Part shown: piece by piece, positions 39,205 through 64,000 of the stretch
Numbering within the stretch: position 1 is the first letter of the stretch
How the letters are laid out: each line of letters starts with the position of its first letter
Assembly: GCA_965207455.1 (NCBI GenBank)
Contig: CBDBMJ010000001.1
Coordinates: 544,001 to 608,000, forward strand
Origin: Bdellovibrionota bacterium
GTDB taxonomy: Bacteria > Bdellovibrionota > UBA1018 > CAIPTA01 > JAALKR01
Length of the DNA stretch: 64,000 nucleotides
Direction of reading: 5' to 3'
Translations under genes and position numbers: made by a program
The notes under the pieces: generated by a model
What the model saw: only the letters and a program-made list of their open reading frames with translations
Told to the model about the DNA's origin: nothing
Database searches by the model: none

Positions 39205-40074
39205 TTACTTCAATTTTAAATCACTGGCATATTTATAGCTTAAGGTTTGCAAAAAGATTGATTTTTTATATGCTTTTTCTTCATGTGAGGATTTATATAT
39301 TCCATTTAATCCTTTTTCTTTGATGAAATTGATGACTTTCTTAATTGTTTCTATTTCCCGATCATCAAATATTGATTTATTTATTTTTTTATTTGGTATT
39401 AGATTATGTCCACGGTCTTCTTTTATCATTTTTTTCTCCAGCATTAGCTGAAAAATTTCTCTAAATTTATCAGGGCATGGTCCATGTTCTAAACGAATAT
39501 ATTTACTACCTGTAAGGCTTACTTTGAAATTTTTAAAGTGGAGGAAATCAGCATAAAATAATGCTTTATTTATATATAAAGGGGTTTTGCATACTTTAAC
39601 TAAAGAAAGGACAAGATTTGAAAATAAATCAAAACTGAATTTTCTATTTCCTGAATAAATATCTTCTTTTTGGTTTTTCCAATACACATTTAAGAGGTTC
39701 AGTGTAGCGCTAAACTCATTAGTTTTTAGGCGAATATGTTCATTTTGGCTTGCGTCTTGGATATAGTATGTTTCCCATCTTTTTATGCTAGCTTCACCTA
39801 CCTTTAAGTATTTAGCAAATTCTAGTTGCGACATAGCAAATTTCTTTCTTATCGCTATAATTTCTTTTGAAGTCTGTAAATTGTGATTTTTTCTATATTT
39901 GTCTGCGGCAGCATTTCTTAATCCATCTGCTTGCTTTGAATCCATTAAGGACTCTCCGCAATTTGTACACACATATGCCGGTGATAATACATCTAAAGTT
40001 TCGCCTTTTAGTTTTGGCTTAAATCTAATTTTTTTTGTTTCAAAATCTTTGCTGTTGCAGTGTAAGCATTTCAT
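39205..40074 (-). CDS. Antitoxin: MqsA-type Zn finger + XRE HTH + Panacea/SocA (DUF4065) domain
   Basis: CxxC...CxxCGE, IRKKFAMSQLEFAKYL.VGEASIKRWE, NKALFYADFLHF...SLTG..Y....HGPCP, SH.E..Y. Confidence 0.85.
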   Translation of the reverse strand: MKCLHCNSKDFETKKIRFKPKLKGETLDVLSPAYVCTNCGESLMDSKQADGLRNAAADKYRKNHNLQTSKEIIAIRKKFAMSQLEFAKYLKVGEASIKRWETYYIQDASQNEHIRLKTNEFSATLNLLNVYWKNQKEDIYSGNRKFSFDLFSNLVLSLVKVCKTPLYINKALFYADFLHFKNFKVSLTGSKYIRLEHGPCPDKFREIFQLMLEKKMIKEDRGHNLIPNKKINKSIFDDREIETIKKVINFIKEKGLNGIYKSSHEEKAYKKSIFLQTLSYKYASDLKLK

Positions 40075-40106
40075 GGTTCTCCTCTTCTTTTTTGTTACTA
40101 CTGTTG

Positions 40107-40517
40107 TTATTTATCTTTATGTAAGGAAATATAGTAAAAATAATCATCTATTAAAACATATTTCAGATACATCCTTTTGGATAGTTTTTGACTATTCCAA
40201 GCGAATGCAATTAATTCCTTTCCTTTAATTTTAGATTCATAAGACTTGTCTGGTGGCCTTCCTCCAGCATAATCAGATGGATCGATTTCTTTTAGTAAGT
40301 CTGATATTAATGACCAGACATCTGCTGAATTTCCTATTTCTAGCTCCATAAGTTCATTTACGAATTTAGAAGTTGCAAACATTCCTTTCTTTTCATTTAG
40401 AGCTTTTTTTGCATTTTCTATCTTGCCTGTTAGCTCTTTATGTGATGGTCGTCTTCGACCAGAGTTTCCTGAGTTGTGCAATTCCTCCTCCTCTATAGTA
40501 TCATCTATTGGTATCAT
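40107..40517 (-). CDS. Putative MqsR-like type II toxin
   Basis: Directly upstream of the MqsA-like gene; C-terminal MYLKY...YYISLH resembles the MqsR-family YLK...SFH end. Confidence 0.55.
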   Translation of the reverse strand: MIPIDDTIEEEELHNSGNSGRRRPSHKELTGKIENAKKALNEKKGMFATSKFVNELMELEIGNSADVWSLISDLLKEIDPSDYAGGRPPDKSYESKIKGKELIAFAWNSQKLSKRMYLKYVLIDDYFYYISLHKDK

Positions 40518-41130: not shown

Positions 41131-41257
41131 GACCTATACGTTCGTTTTATTGATATTTACTGTCCTAATTACGGACACCAGTCAATGAATATAGGCCCCT
41201 AGAGGGGGCTCTGTGCCAGCTTTTTTGGTACGGAAATTGCTTTTACATGATTAAGAT
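41131..41257 (+). repeat. ~126-bp direct repeat, copy 1 (upstream of the methyltransferase)
   Basis: GACCTATAC...GTCCTAATTACGGACACCAGTCAATGAATATAGGCC...CTGTGCCAGCTTTT.TGGTACGGAAATTGCTTTTACATGATTAAGAT, shared with 43486-43610. Confidence 0.92.
41226..41241 (+). promoter_or_regulatory. Sigma54 (-24/-12) promoter, copy 1
   Basis: TGGTACGGAAATTGCT matches the TGGYACR-N4-TTGCW consensus with exact GG-N10-GC spacing. Confidence 0.7.
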
Positions 41258-41300
41258 TTTCAGTTATTCTCTAGTAAGAGTTTTTGGCGGTTTATATAAT

Positions 41301-42494: not shown

Positions 42495-43480
42495 ATGAGG
42501 AAGCAATATAAATTTTCAGAAGCATTTAATATCGAGCAAGTACTATCAAAACAAAAATGTGTTGATCTCATTAAAAAAGTGGATGCAGATGACAGATTAT
42601 CGACTAAGGTTGGGAAAATAGCATATGACTTGCGACAGAGATTTAGTTCCTCAACAACAGCACCACCTAAAATTGACGGTAAATCACTCAATCCATTTGT
42701 CTTGAGTATGATTTCATTTAAAAATAAGTTTAGTAAACCAACTGACTTAGTTCCAATTCTGCAATCCAGTAAGGAATTTTCTAGTTTTGAAACGTCTGCT
42801 GGAAAAATTATTGAAGATATTTTCCCCTTCCATTATGGATTTACAACAGAAGCAACAGCCAGTCATGATCCGTTTTCTGAAATAGATTGTATAAAAAAAG
42901 ATTCTCAATCAATAAAACTAATAGCGCTTAAAAGTGGACCTTCATGCATGAACGATACCATGGCTAATAAGATTGGTAGCGCAATTGCAGAATATAATCA
43001 TATATGGTTTGAACGATACAAGAAAACCATTTAACTTTTATAATTGGAATGAATTATAGCACAGCGAAATTATCTAATAAAAAGGATTGGCATGCTATCC
43101 GAATCGCTGAAGAGAAATTAAGATTTAACGGATATCATATCAAGAGCAGTTGTATTCGAAATAACAATATTGCAATTCCAAGCTTCACTGCTGAAAAGAA
43201 TAACAAGAAATTAGTTGTTCAAACACTCCAGGGTAAAAAATTATGGGAATTCATTACAGGATCAGAGATTGACTTTACTGTACTAATTCTCGCGCTGGCT
43301 AAAGCCTCGGTTGAAACTCCTAAATTATCTGATGCAAGTCTAGCAGTTTCCACTGGAGGGTTTTTAGAAACTATCGACTATAAATCCGTTACTCTTCCAG
43401 CGTTTGAAAATTTCAAGCATGAATTGATTCCTTGGTTTTTTCTTTATGTAAGACACTTTGTTGATCGGCTGGAACATTGA
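42495..43480 (+). pseudogene. Putative type II restriction endonuclease (PmeII-like), split by a 1-bp frameshift near 43025
   Basis: ORF1 has ETSAG.IIE, EIDC and LKSGP..N (PD-(D/E)xK-like); adding one A in AAGAAAACC gives ...YKKNHLTFIIGMNYS, continuous into ORF 43049-43480; adjacent to the MTase. Confidence 0.7.
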
Positions 43481-43485
43481 TACTG

Positions 43486-43610
43486 GACCTATACATGCGC
43501 TTATTGACATTTACCGTCCTAATTACGGACACCAGTCAATGAATATAGGCCATAGAAGGGGTTCTGTGCCAGCTTTTCTGGTACGGAAATTGCTTTTACA
43601 TGATTAAGAT
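43486..43610 (+). repeat. ~126-bp direct repeat, copy 2 (begins 5 bp after the endonuclease stop)
   Basis: Near-identical to 41131-41257. Confidence 0.92.
43579..43594 (+). promoter_or_regulatory. Sigma54 (-24/-12) promoter, copy 2
   Basis: TGGTACGGAAATTGCT, about 70 bp upstream of the small ORF at 43664. Confidence 0.7.
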
Positions 43611-43663
43611 GTTTACAGATGGTCCATTGATTTCATCTGTGTTAAGATAAATAAGGAGGAGAT

Positions 43664-43810
43664 ATGATGCAAGGCAAGAAAAAAGGAACAAAGAAAAAAA
43701 CTAAAAAAGTTAGAGCCAAAAAAAAGAAAAAAGATCACTGGGCTGATTTCAAGCCCTTAAGTCCCTTTTCTTTCTTTATTGCAGAAAGAGAACATTCCAG
43801 GTTAAAATAA
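43664..43810 (+). CDS. Unannotated 48-aa Lys-rich small protein, copy 1
   Basis: RBS AAGGAGGA; MMQGKKKGTKKKTKKVRAKKKKKDHWADFKPLSPFSFFIAEREHSRLK; paralog at 44942. Confidence 0.7.
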   Translation: MMQGKKKGTKKKTKKVRAKKKKKDHWADFKPLSPFSFFIAEREHSRLK

Positions 43811-43853
43811 CAGGTAATTAGTTAAAAAAAGTATTTATTTTTAACTGTGTTCT

Positions 43854-44873
43854 ATGAGTAATCCATTCCTTAATAAATATAAAACATGCATGTATGCAGA
43901 CAAACCATCTAAGGTTTTGCGAGCAGGAGATGTTATTACCCTTACTTTAGAGGATGTGAGTAGAATTGCTAGGCATCCCTCTATTCTTGAGGTATTTAAA
44001 CAGTATTCAGAAGATCTGCAATATCCACGGAATCTATGGGCAATATTAAATAAACCCTGCGATATGATTCATGATGGAGAAAATAAAAGATACTTCACAG
44101 CCAACTTATTTTTATCTCCACTCCAAGGGTTGAAAAATGTGTTGAAGCAGAAAACTGTCAAGGAAATTTTATTCCAACAAAAGAGAGCGATGGAATCTGT
44201 AAGAGAGACTTTTCATCAATACATTCAAAAAAATAAAAATACAATCCCCAGTTTCAAGGATACAGTGACATCCCTTTTATACTCTGTTGAGAGTGAAATA
44301 GAGTCATTGGAGACTCCAGAAGAAATATTAGATTATCTCATTAGTTATATAAATAAGAACAAGAAAAATAAACAGCAAGTTATTGACTTAGAATCTTTTA
44401 GAAATTCTTCTATTTGGAAGAAAAATCTTAAAAGACACAATCCTGTAAAAATAGATAAAAGTATAATCATACTTAAAGGGGATAAACCAAAGCCATTGGT
44501 TAATCTATTTCGCAATCAACTTGACTCCCAAGGAATTTTCTTCTATGAACCTCATAAAGATTTATCTAGCGTGGACCATGATTTGGCTTATGTGATACAA
44601 ATAGAGGATATGATAACTCTAAAAATAAAAAAAGAGTTTCAAAGGAATGGTGAGCTTCCGGAAATATTGATAAAAAATAGGAAGATATCCTTGTCAGAAA
44701 GTTTCTCAGATAGGCTTCTTAATATTATGGGTAATTATTTTTCAAGAATTGCAACAGATGATGTGAGTATTAGTGAGGTTACTGATTTATATAAGAAAAT
44801 CTATCCAGAAACTTTTTTTACCAGTGAAAAACAGTTTAACGAGGAGAAAGGGCAATTAAAAAGCCTAATTTAA
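43854..44873 (+). CDS. Hypothetical protein, possibly PemK/MazF-like
   Basis: LRAGDV...WAILNKPCDM and C-terminal ISL...F..RL...MGNYFSRIA; family assignment is by eye. Confidence 0.55.
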   Translation: MSNPFLNKYKTCMYADKPSKVLRAGDVITLTLEDVSRIARHPSILEVFKQYSEDLQYPRNLWAILNKPCDMIHDGENKRYFTANLFLSPLQGLKNVLKQKTVKEILFQQKRAMESVRETFHQYIQKNKNTIPSFKDTVTSLLYSVESEIESLETPEEILDYLISYINKNKKNKQQVIDLESFRNSSIWKKNLKRHNPVKIDKSIIILKGDKPKPLVNLFRNQLDSQGIFFYEPHKDLSSVDHDLAYVIQIEDMITLKIKKEFQRNGELPEILIKNRKISLSESFSDRLLNIMGNYFSRIATDDVSISEVTDLYKKIYPETFFTSEKQFNEEKGQLKSLI

Positions 44874-44941
44874 TTTTTTTTGCCTATCATTTCAATGTAT
44901 GATACGAATTTTATTAAGATAGAAGGAGAAGGGAAGAGACC

Positions 44942-45103
44942 ATGAAGCGAAGCGTCGGAAGGAAAGTGGGAACAAAGAAAAAAACGGCTAAAAAACCTAG
45001 AGCCAAAAAAAAGAAAGAAGATTATTGGGCTGATTTCAAGCCCTTGAGTCCCTTTTCTTTCTTTATTGCAGAAAGAGAATATTCCAAGTCAAAATATAGA
45101 TAA
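44942..45103 (+). CDS. Unannotated 53-aa Lys-rich small protein, copy 2
   Basis: Purine-rich RBS region; MKRSVGRKVGTKKKTAKKPRAKKKKEDYWADFKPLSPFSFFIAEREYSKSKYR. Confidence 0.65.
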   Translation: MKRSVGRKVGTKKKTAKKPRAKKKKEDYWADFKPLSPFSFFIAEREYSKSKYR

Positions 45104-45190
45104 TTAGTTGAAAAATAATTTGCATCAACTGAGGGTGTCATAAACGCAACTCTTAACTACACAATTTACTTTACAGGCCCACTATGTTCC

Positions 45191-45226
45191 ATGAATAATC
45201 CGTTCCTTAATAAATATAAATCCTGA
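45191..45226 (+). pseudogene. Truncated duplicate of the first 10 codons of the 339-aa gene
   Basis: MNNPFLNKYKS* versus MSNPFLNKYKT at 43854; upstream bases also match. Confidence 0.75.
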
Positions 45227-52406: not shown

Positions 52407-55088
52407 ATGGGTTTGGGGATCACATTTAAGCAACAAAGCAAAGAGACTCAGTCGGGTTCTGCCATTTTAATGGTGATGGTCTTAGGTTTATTTATATCTA
52501 GCCTTTCCTACCTTTCCCTTCGAAAGTATCAGATTCATTTAGGGTCGCAAAAAACAGCGGAAGCTCGACAAACACTGCACATGATCCATACAGATATTCG
52601 AGGTGTATTGGGAGACACGCAATCTTGCACAGAGACAATAAAAAAAATTGCCATTTCAGAGGTAAGTAGCAAACTTCTTCCATTTATTAAAGGTTCTGGT
52701 GGGCAGATACTCTACCGGGTTAATAGGCCAGATAGCACTGGAACAACAATCACTGAACTGCAACTCTCCAAGCTTACTCCTATCCCGGGTACTACTAGCT
52801 CCATGGCAGAACTCTCTATCTTTTTTGAAAGGAAAAATAGCACTGGTCTTGAACTTCCTTCCTTTCGAGCCAGAGATATTAAAATTAAAATAGATCATCC
52901 ACCTCTTAATGTGACTCAACTTGCTCTCGGGAAATACCACACATGTGCGTTGTTTACTAATGGAAGGATGAAGTGCTGGGGCGGTGGTAGCGGAGGGAAT
53001 AATAAAGGACAATTAGGTTATGAAAATAAGGATACTATAGGTGATATTGTAGATGAGTTAGGGGGCAATCTTCCCTTTGTAGATTTAGGGTCCGGTATTA
53101 ATGGTCCTTATAAAGCAACAGCTATTTCTGCTGGTAATCAGCATACCTGTGCACTTTTAAATGTGGAAGGAACGGGAAGAGTAAAATGCTGGGGAAATAA
53201 TGCTGCTGGACAGTTGGGTTATGGCAATATATTTTCAAAGGGAGATCAAGAACATGATATGACAAATCTTCCTTTTATAGATTTGGGTGGTATTATTGAC
53301 GGTCATCATTTTTCAGTGCTGGCTATTGCTAGTGGGGATAGTCACAACTGTGCAATTATAGTGGATCCTCCTAGAGCGCCACCGGGACGAGCTTGGGAAG
53401 AAAGAAAAGTTAAGTGCTGGGGAGAGAATGAGCATGGGCAGCTTGGGCGAGGGAATACAGAGGATAGAGGCGATGAGGGTGGGGAGATGAGAAACGCTTT
53501 GGACTTCATACAATTAGGGCAAGGAGGAGGGCAACAGTTAGAGGTTGTTGCTATTAGTGCAGGAATAAGCCACAGCTGTGCTATTTTGAATACTACGCAA
53601 GGTAAGCAAATTAAGTGTTGGGGAAGTAATAGTGCTGGTCAATTAGGGGCAGGATCTACTGCTAGTAAAAGAGGAGCACTTGCAAATGAGATGGGTAGTT
53701 TTTTAAATTTTATTAATTTAGGAACGATTAGTGGTGGTACTGATCCTTTACATGTTTTGTCGATGAGTACAGGGGGAGAAACTAGCTGTGCTGTTTTAGA
53801 TATAAGTACCGGAAGTAGGTTAAAGTGCTGGGGATATAATTCAAAAGGACAGTTAGGTATTGGTAACAGTAATTCAAAGGGACAATCTCCCAACCATATG
53901 GGAAACTATATTTCCTCTAGTGTAGGGCTTCCCTTTGTGGATTTGGGTACAAATTTAGTGGCTAAATCCGTTTCTGTTGGTAATAAGCATACTTGTGTTA
54001 CTTTAACAAGTGGTAAAGTAAAATGTTGGGGAGAGGGTGGTGATGGTCGGCTTGGTTTGGGTAGTGGAGGTGTTTCTGATCCTATTGGCAATAGAGCTAA
54101 CGAAATGGGATATTATTTAAAATATTCTAAATTGGGAACTGATGCTAGTACTGGTGAACGCCATAGGGCTAGTGATGTTTTTGCTGGTTTTGTTCACACT
54201 TGTGCTGTAATGAGTGAAAAAGTAAAGTGTTGGGGTGAGGGAGGTGACAGAGCGCTTGGGTATGGCAATAACCAAAGTATTGCTCGTTTTAACGCTGGTG
54301 AAATGGGGAACAATCTTGGATTTGCTTTGATAGGGTCAGAAAAAATATGCACAGCAATTTTTGCCGAAGATGGAGAAAATTGGGAGTATAAGGATGGGTC
54401 CATTTTTTTGGGTGATGATAGCACAAAGCTGGGTATTGGTACGGATGAACCCGAGGAGATGCTTCATGTGAAGGGTACTATGAAAATAGAGGGAGATGCT
54501 TCTGCTGAAAATGTGTTCAGTTCTGGTTCGATACAATTAGATGAATTTACAGGATCGGATTGTACTGATACAGAAAAGGGGACTCAGCGATTTCGTGGAT
54601 ATGAAATGGAATATTGTGACGGAACTGATTGGAGGAATTTGGGTCAATCGCTTTGGGAGGAACATCCTAACCAAATAGCCACACCAGCTACTGGTACGCC
54701 TAGAAATGTGGGAATAGGAACGGATAATCCTCAAGCTAGATTACATGTTGCAGGAGAAAGTAAATTAGAAAACGGTGAATTTACAGTAGATGGCAATTCC
54801 GCTAGTCCTAGTAGCATTCCTAAGGCATTAGCTATTGGTGGTAATGTTGGAGTTGGGGGAGATGCTACAGGTGCGGAAAATACGGGTACAGATTATAGAT
54901 TAAAAATTGAGGATGGAAACTTTGTATCTACGGGTTTTACGAAAATGGATCATATGAAGTTGAAGGCTACAACTGCTCCTGAGTGCTCCCCTGCAAAGGG
55001 TTTAAACACTCTCTACTATAATATAGCTATTAATAGTCTCCAGTACTGTGATGGGAATATCTGGAGAAGTTTTAGGGTAGCTCCCTAG
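52407..55088 (+). CDS. Pilin-like (PilX-type leader) protein with internal RCC1 propeller and C-terminal fibre-like repeats (gene A)
   Basis: Leader QSG|SAILMVMVLG; seven RCC1 blades (HTC...KCWG..GQLG...EMG..L..IDLG); GIGTxxPxxxLHVxG x2; C...YCDG..W x2. Confidence 0.8.
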   Translation: MGLGITFKQQSKETQSGSAILMVMVLGLFISSLSYLSLRKYQIHLGSQKTAEARQTLHMIHTDIRGVLGDTQSCTETIKKIAISEVSSKLLPFIKGSGGQILYRVNRPDSTGTTITELQLSKLTPIPGTTSSMAELSIFFERKNSTGLELPSFRARDIKIKIDHPPLNVTQLALGKYHTCALFTNGRMKCWGGGSGGNNKGQLGYENKDTIGDIVDELGGNLPFVDLGSGINGPYKATAISAGNQHTCALLNVEGTGRVKCWGNNAAGQLGYGNIFSKGDQEHDMTNLPFIDLGGIIDGHHFSVLAIASGDSHNCAIIVDPPRAPPGRAWEERKVKCWGENEHGQLGRGNTEDRGDEGGEMRNALDFIQLGQGGGQQLEVVAISAGISHSCAILNTTQGKQIKCWGSNSAGQLGAGSTASKRGALANEMGSFLNFINLGTISGGTDPLHVLSMSTGGETSCAVLDISTGSRLKCWGYNSKGQLGIGNSNSKGQSPNHMGNYISSSVGLPFVDLGTNLVAKSVSVGNKHTCVTLTSGKVKCWGEGGDGRLGLGSGGVSDPIGNRANEMGYYLKYSKLGTDASTGERHRASDVFAGFVHTCAVMSEKVKCWGEGGDRALGYGNNQSIARFNAGEMGNNLGFALIGSEKICTAIFAEDGENWEYKDGSIFLGDDSTKLGIGTDEPEEMLHVKGTMKIEGDASAENVFSSGSIQLDEFTGSDCTDTEKGTQRFRGYEMEYCDGTDWRNLGQSLWEEHPNQIATPATGTPRNVGIGTDNPQARLHVAGESKLENGEFTVDGNSASPSSIPKALAIGGNVGVGGDATGAENTGTDYRLKIEDGNFVSTGFTKMDHMKLKATTAPECSPAKGLNTLYYNIAINSLQYCDGNIWRSFRVAP

Positions 55089-55253
55089 TCCATCCTATAA
55101 AAATCTATAAATAGTCTATAAATAGGGCTGAAACCTTATTATATTTGACTTGAGCAAAAAATGTTAATTTTTCTAAATATTTGTTTAGTTGACTAAAAAA
55201 CAATGTTATACTAAAGGTAGAGTATTTTTACAGAAAAGTAATGGGGGATTTTA

Positions 55254-58200
55254 ATGCTAACAAAGCCAATAAGTGGAAAGCGTCCTTTTAGTAATCAGTC
55301 TGGTGTAACCCTAGTGGGTGTGGTAGTAGCGGCTGGTTTGCTGGGAGTGCTTACCCTATTTTCCATGCAAGTCCAAATTAATTTAATCGGTAGTCAGGAA
55401 ACAACGGATAATCGGTATGCGTTTAATAATATTCAATCTAATATTCGTCAATTGTTAGGGAGTCCAAAAGCTTGTAGAGAAACGTTAGAAGGACAGATCA
55501 TTCCTAATCTACCGAATAATTATCTTTCTGTTTCTGACATAAGAGACGATACGGGATCAGCAACGTACAGTCAAGGTAGTTCTTATGAGGGTGGTAGGGT
55601 ATTGATTTCAAAAATGGATCTTTCTTCCTTTGTTCCCAGTGAAAGCGGTTCCCATGAAGGTACAGCAGAATTGCTGGTCTTTTTTCAATCCGCAACAAAT
55701 GTTCCTGGAACTATTGATGCAAAACCAAGAAGAATTGCTTTAAGTATTAAAACCAATCTTACTACTCGTTCTATTACTAAGTGTAGTGCCCTATTTTCAG
55801 AAAAAAATGACAACTCTTGGAGAGAGAATGTCCAGAAGGATCTGTATTTTGATGCTAGTTATGTGGGTATTGGTGTGGAGAATCCAGAAAATGAACTGGA
55901 TATATTGGGAGACGCTAAGTTTAAAGGTAGTTTGAATGTAATAGGCTTATATGATCTGAAAACAATAAAGGTTGGATTTTCGGGTGACTGTAATGCAGGG
56001 TCTCAGCGATATAATACGGGCACCGATACTATGGAGTTTTGCAATAGTGGTAGCTGGGAAGCGATGGGGAGCCTTTGGTCTCAAACGGATACTGGAAACT
56101 TTTATACTGATCCCGCAAAAAATGTTGGTATTGGAACAGAAACACCAGAAAAGAAATTTCATGTGGATGGTAATGCTAAGTTTGATGGTTATATGAGGAT
56201 GGATTCCAGTTCTGGATCAAGCCAGGCATTGGCAGTGCAGGGAAGAGTTATCATTGGACAAAATTTAGATAGCAGCTCTTCTATTGTAATTCCTCCAACG
56301 CTAGCTTCTGATGATACACAGTTCGGTGTGGATGGTGATGTGGAAATTGAAGGCACACTAGAAACGAGTACTATGCAAATAAGCCATGGCAGTCAAGCCT
56401 GTAATGGGGAGAGCATTGGAGTAACGAAGCGTTCTGGTTCAGGTCAGTTTAAATACTGTGATGGAAATAATTGGCAAGTTCTTTTGCCTGAGGATGTAAA
56501 CTTTGTGAAGGAAGAAGATGATGAAATTTTAGAGGTAGATAAAATAATGGTGGGTAAAAATCATACTTGCACTTACTTTACGAATAAAAAAGTAAAATGT
56601 TTTGGAAAAAATAATAAGGGTCAACTGGGTGATAATACGAATAATGATAGTGGTACTCCTGTTTATGTTGAAGATGATGGAGGTAACCATTTAGAAGATG
56701 TTGCTGCAATTTCAACCCATGGAGAGAGCGATTCCACCTGTGCTCGTATGGTTGATGGAACGGTGAGATGTTGGGGAGCAAATAATGAAGGCCAGTTAGG
56801 TAACGGGAGTTCTTCTGATTCGAATCATGCAGTAGCAGTTAATGATATTTCTACAGCTACTTTAATTTCTGTGGCTGCTAAACATGCTTGTGTGCGGTTG
56901 AGTGACGGTACTGCAAAATGTTGGGGAGCAAATGATGAAGGCCAGTTGGGTGATGGTACTAAATTCCAGAGAAATACGCCTGTTTTAGTTAAAGACTCTT
57001 CGGGTACAGATAATCGTGAAGATATTACAAGTATAGAAACAGGTAATGATAGGACTTGTATTAACTATGAGGTTGGTGGGGAGACTAGATCTGGATGTTG
57101 GGGCAAAGATGGAGATCAAACAGCACCTGGTAATACAGATGATTCACTTTTTTCAGGGCCAGTAGATATTGCTATAGCAGGAGATCATATTTGTATGCGA
57201 CCACAAAGTGGAACCGTTCAATGCTGGGGGCTGAATCAATTTGGGCAACTTGGTGATGGTCATACTAGTAGTGATGAGACATACAGATCAGAGCCAAAGC
57301 TTGTGATTGGTATAACGAGTGCAGTGAAAATTGCTGTACGCAATGGATCTAGCTGCGCTATCTTAAGAGATAAGTCTTTGTGGTGTTGGGGACAGATAAC
57401 AAATGATATATCATCAAACAAAGCAGTTAAGGTTGTGGGTTTTGAGAATGTTGTGGATGTTCGTCTTGGTTATTATCATAACTGTGTAACATTTGAAGAC
57501 GGAACAGGCAAGTGCTGGTCAAATGACCCCAGCAGTGTTACGAATCAAGAAGGTCTTGTTAGTAATCCAGATAATTCTATTTCTACCGAGAGTGAGACGC
57601 TTGAAATATTTGATCATGCTGAAACGGTTGGACAATTCAGGTTTAGACCTTGTGGAGGTGTAATTAGACATAAAAGTGAATCTACTGGTGTAGTAGGAGA
57701 TAGGCGATCTTGTGCAGTAGGTTCTGCTTTTCATAACGATATTGTAGACGGTGTTTGTGTTCAATCCTTAAATTGTTCTTTTGATGGTTCAGGGTATGGC
57801 CGTGAGAGAGTTTGTGAATCTGCACAAGGAACCTGTAAGTATACATGTAGTAATAGTACTTGGACAAGAAAGACAAACAATTGTGAAAAGCTAGTAACGC
57901 GAGTTCATTCACCAGACGGACCGCCACCAGTGTGGCCTATACAAATTGCCTCGGGATATTATCATACCTGCGTAGTTCTTAATGATGGCACAGCCAAATG
58001 CTGGGGGAGGAATAATAAAGGGCAATTGGGTAATGGTACTAAAGACAGTAGTTCAACACCAGTTAAAGTTTCTGATCTAACGAATGCGGTTCAAATTTCC
58101 GTGGGAGATAATCACAGTTGCGCAGTTCTTAGTGATGGCACAGCCAAGTGCTGGGGAAATAACGAAGATGGACAATTGGGTGATGGTCATACAACCAATA

Positions 58201-60080
58201 GATATACACCAGTTGCAGTTTCTGGTCTAACGAATGCGGTTCAAATTGCCTTGGGGGAAGAACACACCTGCGCAGTTCTTCGTGACGGCACAGCCAAATG
58301 CTGGGGAGCTAATAGTAGCGGGCAATTGGGTGATAATAGTTTAACCAGGAGAAATACAGCAGTTGCAGTTGATGGTATAACGAATGCGGTTCAAATTGCC
58401 TTGGGATATACTCACAGTTGCGCAGTTCTTAATGATGGCACAGCAAAGTGTTGGGGAAAGAATAATTTTGGGCAGTTGGGTGACGGTTTTACAACTAATA
58501 GACGTAAACCAGTTGAAGTTTTTGAGTTAACGAATGCCGCTCAGATTGCCTTAGGAGATTTTCACACCTGTGCGATTCTTACTGATGGTACAGCAAAATG
58601 CTGGGGGCGGAATAACTATGGGCAATTGGGTGATAGTACAGGAACCCAGAGAAATACCCCAGTTGCAGTTCTCGAGTTAACGAATGCGGTTCAAATTGCC
58701 TTGGGATCTTATCACACCTGCGCAGTTCTTCGTGACGGCACAGCCAAATGCTGGGGGTATAATAATAGAGGGCAATTGGGTAATGGTAGTACAACCCATA
58801 GATCTACACCAGGTACAGTTCCTGTGTTAACGAATGTGCTTCAAATTGCCTTGGGATCAGCGCACAGTTGCGCAGTTCTTCGTGACGGCACAGCCAAATG
58901 TTGGGGGTGGAATGCATATGGGCAATTGGGTAATGGTAGTACAACCCAGAGAACTACACCAGTCTTCGTTGATGGTTTTTCCACTCCCTACCTTTTTCCC
59001 ACGGAAATTGCTGGGGGAGAAACCCACAGTTGCGCACTTATGAATGATGGCACAGCCAAATGCTGGGGGTGGAATAACTATGGGCAATTGGGTAATGGTA
59101 CTAAAGACAGTAGTTCAACACCAGTTAAAGTTTCTGATCTAACGAATGCGATTCAAATTTCCTTGGGAGATAATCACAGTTGCGCAGTTCTTAGTGACGG
59201 CACAGCCAAATGCTGGGGGTATAATAATAAAGGGCAATTGGGTGATAATACTACAGCAGATAAATTAACACCAGTTAAAGTTTTAGGGTTAGCGAATGCG
59301 GTTCAAATTGCCTTGGGAGGGTATCACACCTGCGCACTTCTTCGTGACGGCAAAGCAAAGTGCTGGGGGAATAATAATAGAGGGCAATTGGGTGATGGTA
59401 CTACAACCCATAGATCTAAACCAGTTGCAGTTCTCGTGTTAACGAATGCGGTTCAAATTGCCTTGGGAGAAAACCACAGTTGCGCAGTTCTTCTTGACGG
59501 CACAGCAAAATGCTGGGGGTGGAATAAATATGGGCAATTGGGTAATGGTACAGGAACCCAGAGAAATACCCCAGTTGCAGTTCTCGAGTTAACGAATGCG
59601 ATTCAAATTTCCTTGGGAGGTTACCACAGTTGCGCACTTCTTCGTGACGGCACAGCCAAATGTTGGGGGCGGAATGGTAATGGGCAATTGGGTGCTAGCA
59701 CTACACAGACATGTGGCACTGCAAATATTCCTTGTAGCAGCACACCAGTTGCAGTTGATGGGTTAACGAATGCGGTTCAAATTGCCTTGGGATTTCACCA
59801 CAGTTGCGCAGTTCTTCGTGACGGCACAGCCAAATGTTGGGGGTGGAATGCATATGGGCAATTGGGTAATGGTAGTACAACCGATAGATATACACCAGTT
59901 GCAGTTTCTGGGTTAACGAATGCCGTTCAAATTTCCTTGGGAGATAATCACAGTTGCGCAGTTCTTAGTGATGGCACAGCCAAATGCTGGGGGAGGAATG
60001 CATCTGGGCGATTGGGTGATGGTCATACAACCGACAGATCTACACCAGTCTTCGTTGATGGTACATTATTAAATCCATAA
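55254..60080 (+). CDS. Giant pilin-like adhesin: class III leader, fibre-like repeats, three RCC1 propellers (gene B)
   Basis: Leader NQSG|VTLVGVVVAAG; VGIG..P repeats; C...FCN/YCDG..W; about 6-7 diverged blades, a Cys-rich linker, then 14 near-identical blades. Confidence 0.85.
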   Translation: MLTKPISGKRPFSNQSGVTLVGVVVAAGLLGVLTLFSMQVQINLIGSQETTDNRYAFNNIQSNIRQLLGSPKACRETLEGQIIPNLPNNYLSVSDIRDDTGSATYSQGSSYEGGRVLISKMDLSSFVPSESGSHEGTAELLVFFQSATNVPGTIDAKPRRIALSIKTNLTTRSITKCSALFSEKNDNSWRENVQKDLYFDASYVGIGVENPENELDILGDAKFKGSLNVIGLYDLKTIKVGFSGDCNAGSQRYNTGTDTMEFCNSGSWEAMGSLWSQTDTGNFYTDPAKNVGIGTETPEKKFHVDGNAKFDGYMRMDSSSGSSQALAVQGRVIIGQNLDSSSSIVIPPTLASDDTQFGVDGDVEIEGTLETSTMQISHGSQACNGESIGVTKRSGSGQFKYCDGNNWQVLLPEDVNFVKEEDDEILEVDKIMVGKNHTCTYFTNKKVKCFGKNNKGQLGDNTNNDSGTPVYVEDDGGNHLEDVAAISTHGESDSTCARMVDGTVRCWGANNEGQLGNGSSSDSNHAVAVNDISTATLISVAAKHACVRLSDGTAKCWGANDEGQLGDGTKFQRNTPVLVKDSSGTDNREDITSIETGNDRTCINYEVGGETRSGCWGKDGDQTAPGNTDDSLFSGPVDIAIAGDHICMRPQSGTVQCWGLNQFGQLGDGHTSSDETYRSEPKLVIGITSAVKIAVRNGSSCAILRDKSLWCWGQITNDISSNKAVKVVGFENVVDVRLGYYHNCVTFEDGTGKCWSNDPSSVTNQEGLVSNPDNSISTESETLEIFDHAETVGQFRFRPCGGVIRHKSESTGVVGDRRSCAVGSAFHNDIVDGVCVQSLNCSFDGSGYGRERVCESAQGTCKYTCSNSTWTRKTNNCEKLVTRVHSPDGPPPVWPIQIASGYYHTCVVLNDGTAKCWGRNNKGQLGNGTKDSSSTPVKVSDLTNAVQISVGDNHSCAVLSDGTAKCWGNNEDGQLGDGHTTNRYTPVAVSGLTNAVQIALGEEHTCAVLRDGTAKCWGANSSGQLGDNSLTRRNTAVAVDGITNAVQIALGYTHSCAVLNDGTAKCWGKNNFGQLGDGFTTNRRKPVEVFELTNAAQIALGDFHTCAILTDGTAKCWGRNNYGQLGDSTGTQRNTPVAVLELTNAVQIALGSYHTCAVLRDGTAKCWGYNNRGQLGNGSTTHRSTPGTVPVLTNVLQIALGSAHSCAVLRDGTAKCWGWNAYGQLGNGSTTQRTTPVFVDGFSTPYLFPTEIAGGETHSCALMNDGTAKCWGWNNYGQLGNGTKDSSSTPVKVSDLTNAIQISLGDNHSCAVLSDGTAKCWGYNNKGQLGDNTTADKLTPVKVLGLANAVQIALGGYHTCALLRDGKAKCWGNNNRGQLGDGTTTHRSKPVAVLVLTNAVQIALGENHSCAVLLDGTAKCWGWNKYGQLGNGTGTQRNTPVAVLELTNAIQISLGGYHSCALLRDGTAKCWGRNGNGQLGASTTQTCGTANIPCSSTPVAVDGLTNAVQIALGFHHSCAVLRDGTAKCWGWNAYGQLGNGSTTDRYTPVAVSGLTNAVQISLGDNHSCAVLSDGTAKCWGRNASGRLGDGHTTDRSTPVFVDGTLLNP
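57936..60062 (+). repeat. 14 tandem ~150-bp intragenic repeats (two 7-bladed RCC1 propellers)
   Basis: Unit QIxxGxxHxCAVLxDGTAKCWGxNxxGQLGxGxxxxRxTPVxVxxLTNA, near-identical at DNA level. Confidence 0.95.
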
Positions 60081-60092
60081 AGGAGAGTAAGC

Positions 60093-62591
60093 ATGGGAAG
60101 AAAGGTTGATAGAATGATGAAAAAAATAGTTCTTTTAAAAAAAATAATGGGCACGGAATCTGGTGTTTCTTTAGTGAGTGTAATGATAGCGGCAGGGATA
60201 TTGGGTATAGTTACACTTTTTTCTATTAAAGTTCAAGAAGGAATGATAGGAGGAGCAAAGTCTGTGGAGCGAAGGCATTCCGTAATGGGAGTATTTTCTA
60301 ATATTCGTTCCTTTCTTGCTAATGCTGAGGTTTGTAAGGAAAGCTTAGCTGGATTAAAGCCCGCAGAATCCGTTCCTGAAATAAAGGATGATAAAGGGAA
60401 TGTAGTATACCAAGAAAATAATTTTTATGAAGATGGAAATATTCAGCTTCAGTCCATGAATCTTTCAGCTTTAACAGAGAGCTTTAGTGGATCCAGCAGA
60501 GGGTTTCTTGATTTGAATGTAGTATTTTCTCAGGGAGAAAATAGGACTGGAAGACAATCCTTAGGATTTCTTCCCAGGAGGATTCGCCTTTATGTGGAAA
60601 TAGACCCTAACAATGATGGTGTTATTAAAAACTGTATTACTGTTGCGGGAAAAAATAGTGGAAACTGGCAATATGGATCCAATGAAAGTTTATACTATAT
60701 GGGTAATTCTGTGGGGGTTGGAACCAATAGTCCTGGATCGAAATTAGATGTTCAAGGAAATGCTAAAATAGAGGGACAAATGGGAGCTCACCATGTAGAG
60801 AGTAAGGGTGCTATACAAGTGGGTCAAACAGCAAGTACCTTAGCTTGTTCTGGAAACAATAGGGGAACCCAGCGCTATAGCGTTATTGGTGGTGAAATTG
60901 TTATGCAGTTTTGCAGTGAAAATCGTTGGAAAGCTATGAAAGAGATTTGGGAAGAAAACGGTTCATTTATATTCTCACCCACTGATAGTATTGTGGGTAT
61001 TGGAACCAATACCCCCAGTAGTACTGAAAGATTGGAAGTGAAAGGTGATAGTTGGTTTCAAGGTTTTATGGCTATGAGTGCTCCGTCCGGTTCCTCTAAA
61101 GCACTGGTGGTACGAGGAAATGTTCGTATTGATGACTCATCCTCTGATGCAGACACTGTTTTGCAAGATCCAAGCACATCAGTAAGGTTAGGTGTAAATG
61201 GAAATGTAAAAATAGAAAAATCCATTAAATCAGTATTGTGGCTGAAAGACGGTGGTGCGAATAGTATAACTTGTGATGCTACTAAAGTAGGGTCAGTGCG
61301 AAGTAACGTTAGTGAATTACAGTATTGTAATGGAACAGCTTGGAAAACCATACAAACAAAAAAATTGCCAACAGTGGATCAAATTGGGAGTGGTCTATAT
61401 CATTCTTGTGCAAAAATTAACGATGGAATTCAAACAACAGCTAAATGCTGGGGTTCTAATACCTGGGGACAATTAGGCATTGGAAAGTTTGGACAGAATA
61501 TTCCCGTACCCACTACAGTATTAGAAAGTGGTACACCTGAGAGTAACCCGATACCTTTTAAGCAAATTAAAGAGCTTTCTTTGGGTGATAGCCATACCTG
61601 TATAATAGCTGGAACTAATAGAAAAGCTTATTGCTGGGGAAATAATCATTCCTATAAATTAGGTATTGATGGTTTTGAACAGAGGGACGCTGATAATAAG
61701 CTCACATTTAAGATTCATCCTACTGAAATTGTTAAAACTATTGCTGATGATCCATTTACTGATATAGATAAGATATCCGCAGGTTTCTATCATACTTGCG
61801 CTGTTAAGAATCAAGCGGCTTGGTGTTGGGGTGGAAATTTTTATGGTCAAATTGGAAATGGAGAGTCTGGTAATGACAAATTTGTAAAACTTCCCACTAA
61901 GATTAATACTGATGGGTATGTGGTAGATGTGGCTGCCAGCGAATCTTTTACTTGCGCATTATTGGCGAATAAAAAAGCACAATGCTGGGGGGCTAATTGG
62001 TATGGTCAACTTGGTAATGACAATGATGAGTATAAAGGAAAAGGTAGTCCTGAACATATTTATGTAGAAGGAATTACTGATATAGCGCAAATTGCTGTAG
62101 GCTTGCGCCACGCCTGTGCTCGATTAGAGAATGGATCAATGTGGTGTTGGGGTGCTGGTTGGTCTGGGCAGCTAGGTAACGGTACTTTCGATTCCAGTTC
62201 TATTCCCGTTCAAGTAGAAACAAGTCCAGGGGTAGCGCTTCTTGGAGTTACTCATATTTCTGCTTCTCAATACCAAACTTGCGCTGTTTTAACTGGAGGT
62301 AAAGCTATGTGCTGGGGATTGAATAAAAAAGGAGAAGTGGGTAATGGATTAACTGAGAAAACCCATACTCCCGCTCTAGTATCTGATATTATAAATGTGG
62401 AAAAAGTTTCTGCAGGATATAACCATACCTGTGCGGTTTCCAACGAGCCTGTCAATGGTGGTAACCCTTTAGTTAAAGGAAGTACAGTTTCTTGCTGGGG
62501 TTCCAATTATAAGGGTCAACTGGGCGTTGGTCAGGATAGCTCAAGCCACAGTCTGCTTCCTAAAGCAACGCTTCTGTTGCTCCAAGACTAG
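60093..62591 (+). CDS. Pilin-like adhesin: class III leader, fibre-like repeats, one RCC1 propeller (gene C)
   Basis: RBS AAGGAG; leader ESG|VSLVSVMIAAG; VGVGT..P and VGIGT..P; C...FC/YCNG..W; seven RCC1 blades. Confidence 0.85.
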   Translation: MGRKVDRMMKKIVLLKKIMGTESGVSLVSVMIAAGILGIVTLFSIKVQEGMIGGAKSVERRHSVMGVFSNIRSFLANAEVCKESLAGLKPAESVPEIKDDKGNVVYQENNFYEDGNIQLQSMNLSALTESFSGSSRGFLDLNVVFSQGENRTGRQSLGFLPRRIRLYVEIDPNNDGVIKNCITVAGKNSGNWQYGSNESLYYMGNSVGVGTNSPGSKLDVQGNAKIEGQMGAHHVESKGAIQVGQTASTLACSGNNRGTQRYSVIGGEIVMQFCSENRWKAMKEIWEENGSFIFSPTDSIVGIGTNTPSSTERLEVKGDSWFQGFMAMSAPSGSSKALVVRGNVRIDDSSSDADTVLQDPSTSVRLGVNGNVKIEKSIKSVLWLKDGGANSITCDATKVGSVRSNVSELQYCNGTAWKTIQTKKLPTVDQIGSGLYHSCAKINDGIQTTAKCWGSNTWGQLGIGKFGQNIPVPTTVLESGTPESNPIPFKQIKELSLGDSHTCIIAGTNRKAYCWGNNHSYKLGIDGFEQRDADNKLTFKIHPTEIVKTIADDPFTDIDKISAGFYHTCAVKNQAAWCWGGNFYGQIGNGESGNDKFVKLPTKINTDGYVVDVAASESFTCALLANKKAQCWGANWYGQLGNDNDEYKGKGSPEHIYVEGITDIAQIAVGLRHACARLENGSMWCWGAGWSGQLGNGTFDSSSIPVQVETSPGVALLGVTHISASQYQTCAVLTGGKAMCWGLNKKGEVGNGLTEKTHTPALVSDIINVEKVSAGYNHTCAVSNEPVNGGNPLVKGSTVSCWGSNYKGQLGVGQDSSSHSLLPKATLLLLQD

Positions 62592-62622
62592 CTATAACTG
62601 TTTTGTGTGATGGAGGAGAATT

Positions 62623-64000
62623 ATGAGAAAAAAAGGCAAAACCACTTGGTTGAACTCTTCAGGTATGAGTTTAGTTGCTGTAATGATAGTTGTGACGTTT
62701 ATGAGTTCCTGTGGCAATGGAACATTTGAAGTTACAGCAGATTCCACAGGTGTGACGGGTACCACGAGAGACACAGCAAGTAAAATACTTTTGGGACGCG
62801 ATCATACTTGCGCACTTATTAGTGATGGCACTGTAAAATGTTGGGGAAATAATTTTTATGGGCAATTGGGTAACGATTCTACGGATGATAGCACCACCCC
62901 TGTTATAGTTTCTGGACTCTCTAACGTACGTCAAGTTATATTATATTGGGAACATACTTGCGCAATCATTAATGATGGTACTGTGAAGTGCTGGGGAAAG
63001 AATGAAAATAGTCAGTTGGGTGCTAGCACTACACAGACATGTGGCACTGCAAATATTCCTTGTAGCAGCACACCCGTTGAAGTTTCTGGCTTAAGTAATG
63101 TGAGTCAAATTGCTTCAGGAGCGTATCATTATTGTGCATTATTAACTACAGGCTCTGTAAAATGCTGGGGTTTAAATAGTTCTGGACAATTGGGCGACGG
63201 CAATGGTGGTAATACTGGAGATAAAAGTCCAACACCTGTTCTCGTTTCTGGGATTACCAATGCAAGTCGAATTGCCTTAGGACATTATTATAGTTGTGCA
63301 TTATTAACGACTGGCTCTGTGAAATGTTGGGGGCGAAATAGTTTTAGGCAGTTAGGCGACGGTACTTCTGAGCAAAGAACGGTGCCAGTTGCCGTTTCTG
63401 GGATTACCAATGCAAGTCAAATTAGAGCTGGGGAAGATTCCACCTGTGTTATTTTAAGTGACGCTTCTGTAAAATGCTGGGGAACTAGTTCTTATGGGAA
63501 GTTGGGTTATGGTAGTACAGATCATACCGCAATACCAGTTACAGTTTCCGGTATTGATAACGCAAGTCAAATTCTTATGTCCAATGTTCACGCTTGTGCA
63601 TTATTAACCACTGGTTCTGTGAAATGTTGGGGGAAGAATGAGTCCGGGCAATTGGGAAATGGCAGTGGTGGTAGCAGTGGAGATAAAAGTTTAGCACCAG
63701 TTGAGGTTTTTGGCATTACTAATGCAAGTCAAATTGATATTGGCTACTATCATTTTTGTGCATTATTATCGACTGGCTTTGTGAAGTGTTGGGGCTTGAA
63801 TAGTTCTGGGCAATTGGGCGACGGCAATGGTGGTAATACTGGAGACAAAAGCCTAGTACCGGTTACAGTTTCTGAACTCAGCAATGTAAGCCAACTTTCA
63901 TTAGGAGGTCATTATAGTTGTGTTGTTTTAAATGATGATACTGTGAAATGCTGGGGTCAGAATAGTGATGGGCAGTTAGGCGACGGTTCCACAGATGATC
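62623..64000 (+). CDS. RCC1-repeat surface protein, runs off the window end (gene D; absent from the ORF track)
   Basis: RBS GGAGGAG; MRKKGKTTWLNSSG|MSLVAVMIVVTFMSSCGNG...; at least 8 blades (H.CALL.TGSVKCWG.N..GQLG); no stop before 64000. Confidence 0.85.
   Translation, partial: MRKKGKTTWLNSSGMSLVAVMIVVTFMSSCGNGTFEVTADSTGVTGTTRDTASKILLGRDHTCALISDGTVKCWGNNFYGQLGNDSTDDSTTPVIVSGLSNVRQVILYWEHTCAIINDGTVKCWGKNENSQLGASTTQTCGTANIPCSSTPVEVSGLSNVSQIASGAYHYCALLTTGSVKCWGLNSSGQLGDGNGGNTGDKSPTPVLVSGITNASRIALGHYYSCALLTTGSVKCWGRNSFRQLGDGTSEQRTVPVAVSGITNASQIRAGEDSTCVILSDASVKCWGTSSYGKLGYGSTDHTAIPVTVSGIDNASQILMSNVHACALLTTGSVKCWGKNESGQLGNGSGGSSGDKSLAPVEVFGITNASQIDIGYYHFCALLSTGFVKCWGLNSSGQLGDGNGGNTGDKSLVPVTVSELSNVSQLSLGGHYSCVVLNDDTVKCWGQNSDGQLGDGSTDD

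Follow-up and report, generated by a model that had tools for sequence, protein, structure and literature searches.

The question raised by this locus is what is done by two adjoining genes that match no known protein family, a very small lysine-rich open reading frame (ORF) and, directly behind it, an ORF of 339 codons. They lie in a stretch of 64,000 nt from a Bdellovibrionota bacterium (contig CBDBMJ010000001.1, positions 544,001–608,000, forward strand), which as a whole is referred to here as the window and whose positions serve as coordinates below. An initial annotation of this DNA had described a duplicated micro-protein flanking an unknown gene, and had proposed a two-gene unit, a basic peptide plus an effector, within a defence island. 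We describe here the conservation of the pair, the predicted MazF/CcdB-like fold of the large protein, and a dependence of the large gene on the small one that runs in one direction. We favor, with a probability of roughly 0.55, a module in which the large product is a toxin and the micro-protein its neutraliser, either as a toxin-antitoxin-like system or in abortive infection.

A conserved pair of genes and its orphan copy

The segments of the window from which the unit is built are the following.

43664..43810, + strand: micro-ORF 1, 48 aa, or 47 aa if the second ATG (43667) is used; Lys-rich N-terminal half and conserved C-terminal motif
43854..44873, + strand: the large gene (339-aa ORF)
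44942..45103, + strand: micro-ORF 2, 53 aa, an intact orphan copy
45191..45226, + strand: 11-codon remnant MNNPFLNKYKS-stop, the 5' end of a second effector gene now lost (repeat D2, 87%)

A word-indexed search of 5.8 billion clusters gave 39 relatives of the 339-aa protein, and a full hidden Markov model (HMM) scan of 1.84 billion proteins gave 55 family representatives; no Pfam domain and no informative name is attached to any of them. Readable DNA was available for 13 distinct loci: the window, a paralog in its own genome, and L007–L013, L016 and L019–L021, which come from six species genomes (five titled as Bdellovibrionota lineages and one as a 'Rhodobacteraceae' metagenome-assembled genome), two further genomes, and three metagenome contigs. 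The paralog stands elsewhere in the window genome, is 45% identical, and is that genome's second effector. At all 13 loci the large gene has a micro-ORF directly ahead of it. Twelve of these are intact, each an ORF of 48–70 aa that ends 3–43 nt 5' of the large gene, and the remaining one (genome G339) carries a -1 frameshift in an A-run. The pattern therefore exceeds chance, and on gene order and spacing the micro-ORF and large gene are a conserved operon of two adjacent, co-oriented genes, the arrangement that characterizes type II toxin-antitoxin loci. The two-gene unit of the initial annotation, with its prediction that an upstream peptide would accompany homologs of the 339-aa protein, is thus borne out.

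The 14 micro-proteins can be aligned, and, window copy 2 excepted, the 12 relatives are 19–45% identical to micro-ORF 1. The conserved feature is a C-terminal motif, W-x-x-[FV]-x-P-x-[VI]-P-[FL]-S-x-x-[LIV]-A-[SDE]-x-x-A-x-x-x-K-N, and the only fully invariant columns are one Ala and one Lys. The N-terminal half is basic and variable in length, and its DNA is not universally A-rich (for example, not at L008 or L009). All 14 are basic, with net charges of +3 to +17 and isoelectric points (pI) of 9.45–12.0 (the micro-ORF 1 product has a net charge of +14 and a pI of 10.8), and the large proteins are mostly mildly acidic, with a median pI of 5.9. Because no Rfam model matches in the window or in a second island described below, and because upstream of the large gene Tandem Repeats Finder and a repeat search show no tandem array, just A-rich low-complexity DNA, we regard the micro-ORF as a real protein family rather than an RNA element.

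Within the window both small ORFs (48 and 53 aa) are present as first reported, and each precedes either the start of the large gene or its remnant. Two direct repeats relate the copies, 43691–43809 with 44978–45096 (89% identity) and 43844–43888 with 45181–45225 (87% identity). Across 48 aligned codons 35 are identical, three differ synonymously and 10 non-synonymously, giving 79% identity at the protein level, and the reading frame is kept in both copies because the indels between them are of 6 nt and 3 nt. The two are identical in the 18-residue core WADFKPLSPFSFFIAERE, whose only DNA change is one of the synonymous ones, TTA/TTG at Leu32; the invariance claimed for this core thus applies to the two window copies and not to the family, which shares only the motif. 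Long A runs occur in both copies. A start of micro-ORF 1 at the second ATG agrees with a 47-aa public gene call (98% query coverage).

Behind micro-ORF 2 the DNA at 45191..45226 reads ATG AAT AAT CCG TTC CTT AAT AAA TAT AAA TCC TGA; these 11 codons look like the beginning of the 339-aa gene, and beyond them the DNA is no longer similar to copy 1. Micro-ORF 2 and the 11-codon stub are, to judge by this DNA, what is left of a second unit whose effector gene has been lost, and the duplicated arrangement on either side of the large gene, contrary to the earlier view, is no feature of the system's design. A check for excision, in contigs of the one listed dataset (of unstated kind) with this DNA, found no joint between the repeats.

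The unit is patchy and rare, being present in four of 401 genomes sampled from the phylum. At other loci it adjoins integrases, a transposase, Fic, RhuM or Bro-N. The effector gene is disrupted at three of the 13 loci and deleted in two more cases, and such frequent decay is expected of a costly gene. No member of the 339-aa family was found in viral contigs, neither the window protein nor protein P0087 was found among plasmids, neither P0105 nor the phage-like micro-protein discussed below occurs in phage records, and the micro-protein has no match in IMG/VR.

A split MazF/CcdB-like fold

The large protein and the micro-proteins match nothing in Pfam, PADLOC, NCBIfam or PHROGs, and no component model of PADLOC-DB v2 recognizes either. 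A sequence-profile search of the PDB returned designed helical proteins only, at E ≥ 0.12, and the ESM Atlas returned only unnamed clusters. The AlphaFold (AF2) model of the 339-aa protein has a predicted local distance difference test score (pLDDT) of 88.1 and a predicted template modelling score (pTM) of 0.81, and it shows the following architecture.

Residues ~20–108 and ~200–296: the two parts of a MazF/CcdB-like core
Residues ~109–199: a helical insert of ~90 residues, with five helices of at least 10 residues and a short one between residues 112 and 195
Thereafter: C-terminal helices

In an exhaustive structural search (VIA-align) with this model, helical bundles matching residues 109–199 come out on top, with Z up to 6.3. 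Residues 20..296 match MazF 4mzm_A (Z 5.2, 104 of 115 residues, 22% identity), MazF-mt1 (Z 5.1, 110 of 118 residues) and CcdB 1vub_A (Z 5.0, 92 of 95 residues). Taken alone, these toxin matches of a predicted model are weak evidence. The HMM scan, however, also reached distant relatives of about 290–377 aa that lack the insert and that make up a superfamily of at least 1495 clusters, all of them named 'hypothetical'. Along its entire length the 339-aa family is homologous to this superfamily (hhalign 94.9%, E 4.6e-8; when the C-terminal core is compared, 96.6%), and a superfamily member modelled with 54 sequences reaches a pLDDT of 94.5. Its 12 best VIA-align matches are all MazF, Kid, CcdB or CptN, at Z 8.6 to 5.5, and the next fold is at 4.8; 11 MazF/Kid/CcdB chains score Z 8.6–6.1, with 113 of 115 MazF residues aligned. 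The match to CcdB 1vub_A is at Z 6.7, and over both models 92–94 of its 95 residues are aligned. The Foldseek list for this model is nearly all MazF/CcdB (probability 0.9–1.0, E 0.012–0.2). Because the window model and the model of its homologous superfamily both give this MazF/CcdB-type barrel, we conclude that the 339-aa protein, as modelled, has a MazF/CcdB-fold core into which a helical insert of ~90 residues is set, with additional helices behind the core. The statement that the unit matches no recognized system thus holds for sequence, across the four libraries, and fails for fold.

The conserved polar residues of the 339-aa protein are Cys69-Asp70 after strand 2, N221/Q222, S285-D286-R287, and S297/T301/D303. 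Kept across both family and superfamily are a G-D on strand 1, the C-D after strand 2, and S-[KR]-x-G-T-x-D, a set that differs from the catalytic residues of MazF.

One of four superfamily members has a sub-threshold match to PADLOC PDC-S50 (E 0.007), the only match among the four. In the phylum sample the superfamily occurs in one of 401 genomes, where the gene is disrupted by an insertion sequence and is uninformative about an upstream ORF. On IMG/VR contigs (L055–L060) the insert-less superfamily gene (289–310 aa) is the last of a three-gene operon, behind a 215–236-aa protein without a family and a poorly conserved 71–85-aa ORF that overlaps or abuts the next gene. This upstream two-gene set is found at all six loci that have upstream DNA. 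The operon follows a CHAP endolysin and a holin at L060, and precedes an OLD-family ATPase/TOPRIM nuclease at L058. The 71–85-aa ORFs have no evident similarity to the micro-proteins, and no relative of the viral-contig superfamily protein was found in Escherichia coli genomes.

One-way dependence and its interpretation

With a profile of the micro-protein, strong matches are limited to the four genomes in which the large gene occurs, and there the micro-ORFs outnumber the effectors. The window genome has seven copies, all of them open frames, of which two stand before an effector, and G339 has four, of which one does. Conversely, all 10 of the intact effector genes have a micro-ORF. The dependence is one-way: effectors always come with a micro-ORF, and micro-ORFs also occur without an effector. 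If the large product is harmful and the small one serves as antidote, one expects large genes to be lost while small ones remain, and this dependence, together with the setting in a defence island, leads us to favor the toxin/neutraliser module. The effector role assigned by the initial annotation thus gains support from the modelled fold and from this asymmetry.

Five of the copies in the window genome lack an effector: micro-ORF 2, a diverged copy after a 343-aa ORF (RhuM-like by eye), and three in a second island.

Island 2 (L052), G000:C1:1746000–1765900: two ABC-3C systems (DUF2326 ATPases, MC6/MC8, CTD10/CTD12, HNH), an AbiEi-like gene, the MazF-like paralog, and four micro-ORF copies

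The four copies in island 2 are 2.5–4.6 kb apart and share the micro-ORF, the spacer and a downstream ATG; three of the four also share ~200 nt of upstream leader and the sequence ATGAAT at the downstream start. They diverge completely 3' of that start, and are followed by the MazF-like paralog, by a 268-aa unknown and then an ABC-3C operon, by ~500 nt and then the HNH/CTD10 ABC-3C operon, and by Sel1-repeat genes. Comparison of the 268-aa protein with the superfamily, and with the 'A' protein of the viral operons, gave nothing significant. At both orphan sites examined the DNA similarity to the full unit ends at the effector start, which fits replaced cassettes better than shared regulation. 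A ~40-nt sub-motif of the island-2 leader occurs in tandem ~14 kb away, at G000:C1:1777908–1778099, and again at 1849667–1849709.

Three further copies, in G339, have a phage-like setting. The same 3-kb arrangement is present on three contigs (C4, C9 and C11; L065, L070, L072 and L078), where the stop codon of a 157-aa PseT-like gene and the start of an intact 50-aa micro-ORF overlap by 1 nt. The 157-aa gene matches the pseT polynucleotide kinase/3'-phosphatase in 3020 phage records, and a 390-aa baseplate-like protein encoded on the same contig and strand has matches in 62. The DNA of this micro-ORF is 100% identical to the chromosomal copy of G339 exactly from start to stop codon, barring a 39-nt indel and an A8/A9 run. 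At the chromosomal copy (C16; L015/L074) the difference of a single A relative to L065, A8 against A9, shifts the frame, and it could reflect an assembly error, a decayed gene, or a slippage-prone on/off switch of the poly-Lys tract. Phages carry antidotes to host toxins, and T4 PseT heals the 2',3'-cyclic-phosphate and 5'-OH RNA ends, such as MazF-type cleavage leaves, in counter-defence. The arrangement hints at a mobile element equipped with an antidote to an RNA-cutting effector and with an enzyme that repairs its damage.

For this module we infer binding between the two products, toxicity of the larger one, a substrate and a trigger, with the micro-protein acting as antitoxin, nucleic-acid binder or regulator. 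Effector and micro-protein would be made from one operon, and the C-terminal ~25 residues of the micro-protein, which hold the conserved motif, would dock on the effector and block it. The Lys-rich half, presumably disordered, could make the micro-protein short-lived or tether it to nucleic acid. If its supply were stopped or titrated, for example during phage takeover, the effector would be freed to attack nucleic acid, most likely RNA (RNA cleavage being our first guess), with growth arrest as the outcome. The unit probably acts by abortive infection. In the second unit of the window the effector would have been deleted and the harmless antidote gene, micro-ORF 2, kept. A prediction of the complex, with both proteins given as alignments and no controls, scored 0.00, which is no verdict.

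Several observations weigh against this reading. With the window model Foldseek returns no row at E ≤ 0.001, and the MazF matches, at only Z ~5, lie below several matches to the helical insert. None of 34 family members has a Pfam link to MazF/PemK (PF02452) or CcdB, with no PF02452 match at E up to 1; the PF02452 model likewise finds nothing in this genome, and it does find matches in 20 of 81 genomes of the phylum. Against 29 PemK sequences, hhalign assigns the family a probability of 4% and the superfamily one of 0.1%, neither of them significant. On each of these counts (Pfam, PF02452 search, hhalign) the large protein falls outside the PemK and CcdB sequence families. MazF has P-[LI]-T-[ST] after strand 3, and its catalytic residues are an Arg in the β1-β2 loop and a Thr/Ser after β3. 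At the position after strand 3 the alignments read PLQG in the 339-aa family and PVRPL in the superfamily, so the catalytic Thr and Arg of MazF are not evidently kept, and the activity of the effector could be something other than that of MazF, or none. The 13 loci examined compare with 39 family members in the word search and 55 in the HMM scan, and some of the frameshifts may be assembly errors. Classical antitoxins such as MazE and CcdA are acidic and have a DNA-binding fold, whereas the micro-protein is basic and has no recognizable fold. Lastly, the leader and micro-ORF of island 2 precede other genes too, namely the 268-aa unknown and an ABC-3C operon, an arrangement that also fits a general regulator or a recombination handle.

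The last two of these points fit an alternative in which the micro-protein is a positive partner: as a polybasic sensor or adaptor that binds nucleic acid, it would bring the effector to phage DNA or RNA or activate it there. Or else it would be a small general regulator of several defence cassettes. The charge difference between the two families speaks for such a partner, and GajC, which is discussed below, is described as a split MazF-like effector that requires one. Once its effector was lost, however, an activator should not survive as an orphan, nor should a phage-like element capture it exactly from start to stop codon beside an RNA-end-healing enzyme, and shared regulation is less well suited than replaced cassettes to a similarity that ends at the downstream start codon. 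We consider this alternative unlikely.

A broader proposal, to our minds a decidedly speculative and improbable one, is that leader and micro-ORF form a portable 5' 'safety catch'. The micro-protein would be a general trans-acting neutraliser or sensor that gates the MazF-fold protein, the 268-aa unknown and the ABC-3C operons alike, its conserved DNA would provide the homology handle for effector-cassette swaps that leave orphans behind, and phages would steal the ORF, beside an RNA-end-healing enzyme, to disarm it.

Very improbable, in our view, is a purely cis-acting role, in which the micro-ORF is a regulatory upstream ORF whose A-rich poly-Lys tract causes ribosomes to slide or stall and so sets effector translation or mRNA fate, the peptide itself having no function in trans. 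The tight spacing of the two ORFs, the long A runs of the window copies and the frame-shifting A8/A9 difference in G339 are compatible with it, but it is an amino-acid motif in the C-terminal half that is conserved among the 12 relatives, the N-terminal half varies in length and is not always A-rich, and the orphan and phage-borne copies are intact with no effector downstream. We give just as little weight to the idea that the pair has nothing to do with conflict, being a lineage-specific accessory gene with a small basic partner and a MazF-like fold reused for a non-toxic role: the fact that MazF catalytic residues are not evidently kept, the lack of any defence-library match, and the modest Z of the window model would suit it, but the low-GC island or mobile contexts of most loci, the sporadic distribution, the frequent pseudogenisation of effectors, and the occurrence of superfamily members near lysis genes and an OLD-family nuclease on viral contigs do not.

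The toxin/neutraliser reading would offer a fold and a testable function for the unannotated superfamily and its Bdellovibrionota branch, and would add a new type of antidote, a polybasic micro-protein of 48–70 aa that gene callers often miss. The phage-borne copy beside a PseT-like RNA-repair phosphatase is a candidate for a natural counter-defence pairing, and the orphan micro-ORFs would be traces of cassettes that defence islands have lost or exchanged.

Genomic setting and comparison with known systems

The DNA ahead of micro-ORF 1 contains the following elements.

43483..43613, + strand: 131-nt leader, copy B of a direct repeat; copy A, 41131–41260, stands ahead of a C5 methylase gene
43562..43588, + strand: terminator-like hairpin, overlapping the next element
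43579..43594, + strand: sigma54-like -24/-12 element, TGGTACGGAAATTGCT, the same in both copies of the 131-nt repeat
43653..43660, + strand: ribosome-binding site AAGGAGGA of micro-ORF 1, read from the sequence

The ribosome-binding site lies 3 nt ahead of the ATG at 43664 and 6 nt ahead of the second ATG at 43667, and it is downstream of the sigma54-like site, as the initial annotation had it; the genome encodes a sigma54. The two copies of the 131-nt repeat are 91% identical and are the only ones genome-wide. The repeat also holds the first ~11 nt of the methylase ORF, and micro-ORF 1 therefore now stands behind a copy of the methylase leader, which suggests that the cassette may have been inserted or duplicated through recombination at the leaders. 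The two copies bracket the methylase/endonuclease (restriction-modification) module.

The unit sits in a 9.7-kb island of low GC content (31–38%, against 41–49% in the flanks) bordered by bacA and a mutY-like gene, in agreement with the defence-island location first proposed. Four modules make up this island: an MqsA/Panacea-type antitoxin gene with an upstream 136-aa ORF, the C5 methylase with two endonuclease-like ORFs, the unit itself, and IetS/IetA, which are called by PADLOC (E 4e-192 and 1.3e-138, respectively). The immediate neighbors of the unit are thus the restriction-modification module on one side and IetAS on the other. At 39205–40517 (- strand) are a 289-aa MqsA-helix-turn-helix/SocA-Panacea antitoxin-type protein and, just upstream, the 136-aa ORF without a family, which probably form a PanA-type toxin-antitoxin pair of their own, on the island's edge. 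The ORFs at 42495–43034 and 43049–43480 (179 and 143 aa) adjoin one another 3' of the methylase gene. The former has weak similarity to endonucleases of the EcoO109I type (Pfam E 0.005; PADLOC REase_II E 2.6e-4), and the two may be a split or decayed restriction enzyme. Farther along, 52407–63999 holds four successive ORFs of 893, 1608, 832 and at least 459 aa. Large RCC1-repeat proteins are encoded by the first three, and the homologous unit in G276 (L013) likewise has an RCC1-repeat gene beside it.

How, then, does the unit compare with systems already described? Searches of the full-text literature turned up no account of this family, and GajC was the one analogue that emerged.

Type III systems are represented by ToxN, CptN and AbiQ, which are weaker fold neighbors of the superfamily model (4rmo_A at Z 5.5, 7d8o_C at Z 4.1 and 4glk_A at Z 3.8). 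Their toxins act by abortive infection and their antidote is a tandem-repeat RNA. Here the upstream element is conserved as a protein, and because no repeat RNA is present upstream, a type III toxin-antitoxin assignment is excluded.

CcdAB resembles the unit in the fold of its toxin, as the matches to 1vub_A with the window and superfamily models indicate. Read by eye, CcdB also appears to have a strand followed by Q-S-x-D-like residues and later a P-L, as in the large protein. No Pfam match (PF01845) is found here, however, size and inserts differ, and nothing bears on gyrase.

The split core brings to mind type II Gabija (Liu-DS1), in which GajC is described as a split MazF-like effector that needs a partner, the UvrD-type helicase GajB, for defence (PMC13069673, Nucleic Acids Res 2026). 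Compared by description only, a split MazF-like core with a helical insertion is the architecture of the 339-aa model. The partner here, in contrast, is a micro-protein and not a helicase, and no helicase domain was found beside the unit, either among the window neighbors or among 64 neighboring ORFs of nine other loci.

The MazEF, Kis-Kid and PemIK systems, which along with CcdAB come closest to the unit, offer the fullest comparison. The unit differs from them in the lack of sequence similarity, in an effector three times larger with its ~90-residue helical insert and C-terminal helices, and in its conserved Cys-Asp and S-[KR]-x-G-T-x-D residues. Its partner also differs, being a polybasic and probably disordered protein of 48–70 aa without an AbrB or ribbon-helix-helix DNA-binding domain, whereas MazE is acidic. 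What the unit has in common with these systems is the fold and strand order of the effector core, a small partner gene directly upstream in the operon, mobile and defence contexts, and the occurrence of orphan 'antitoxin' copies.

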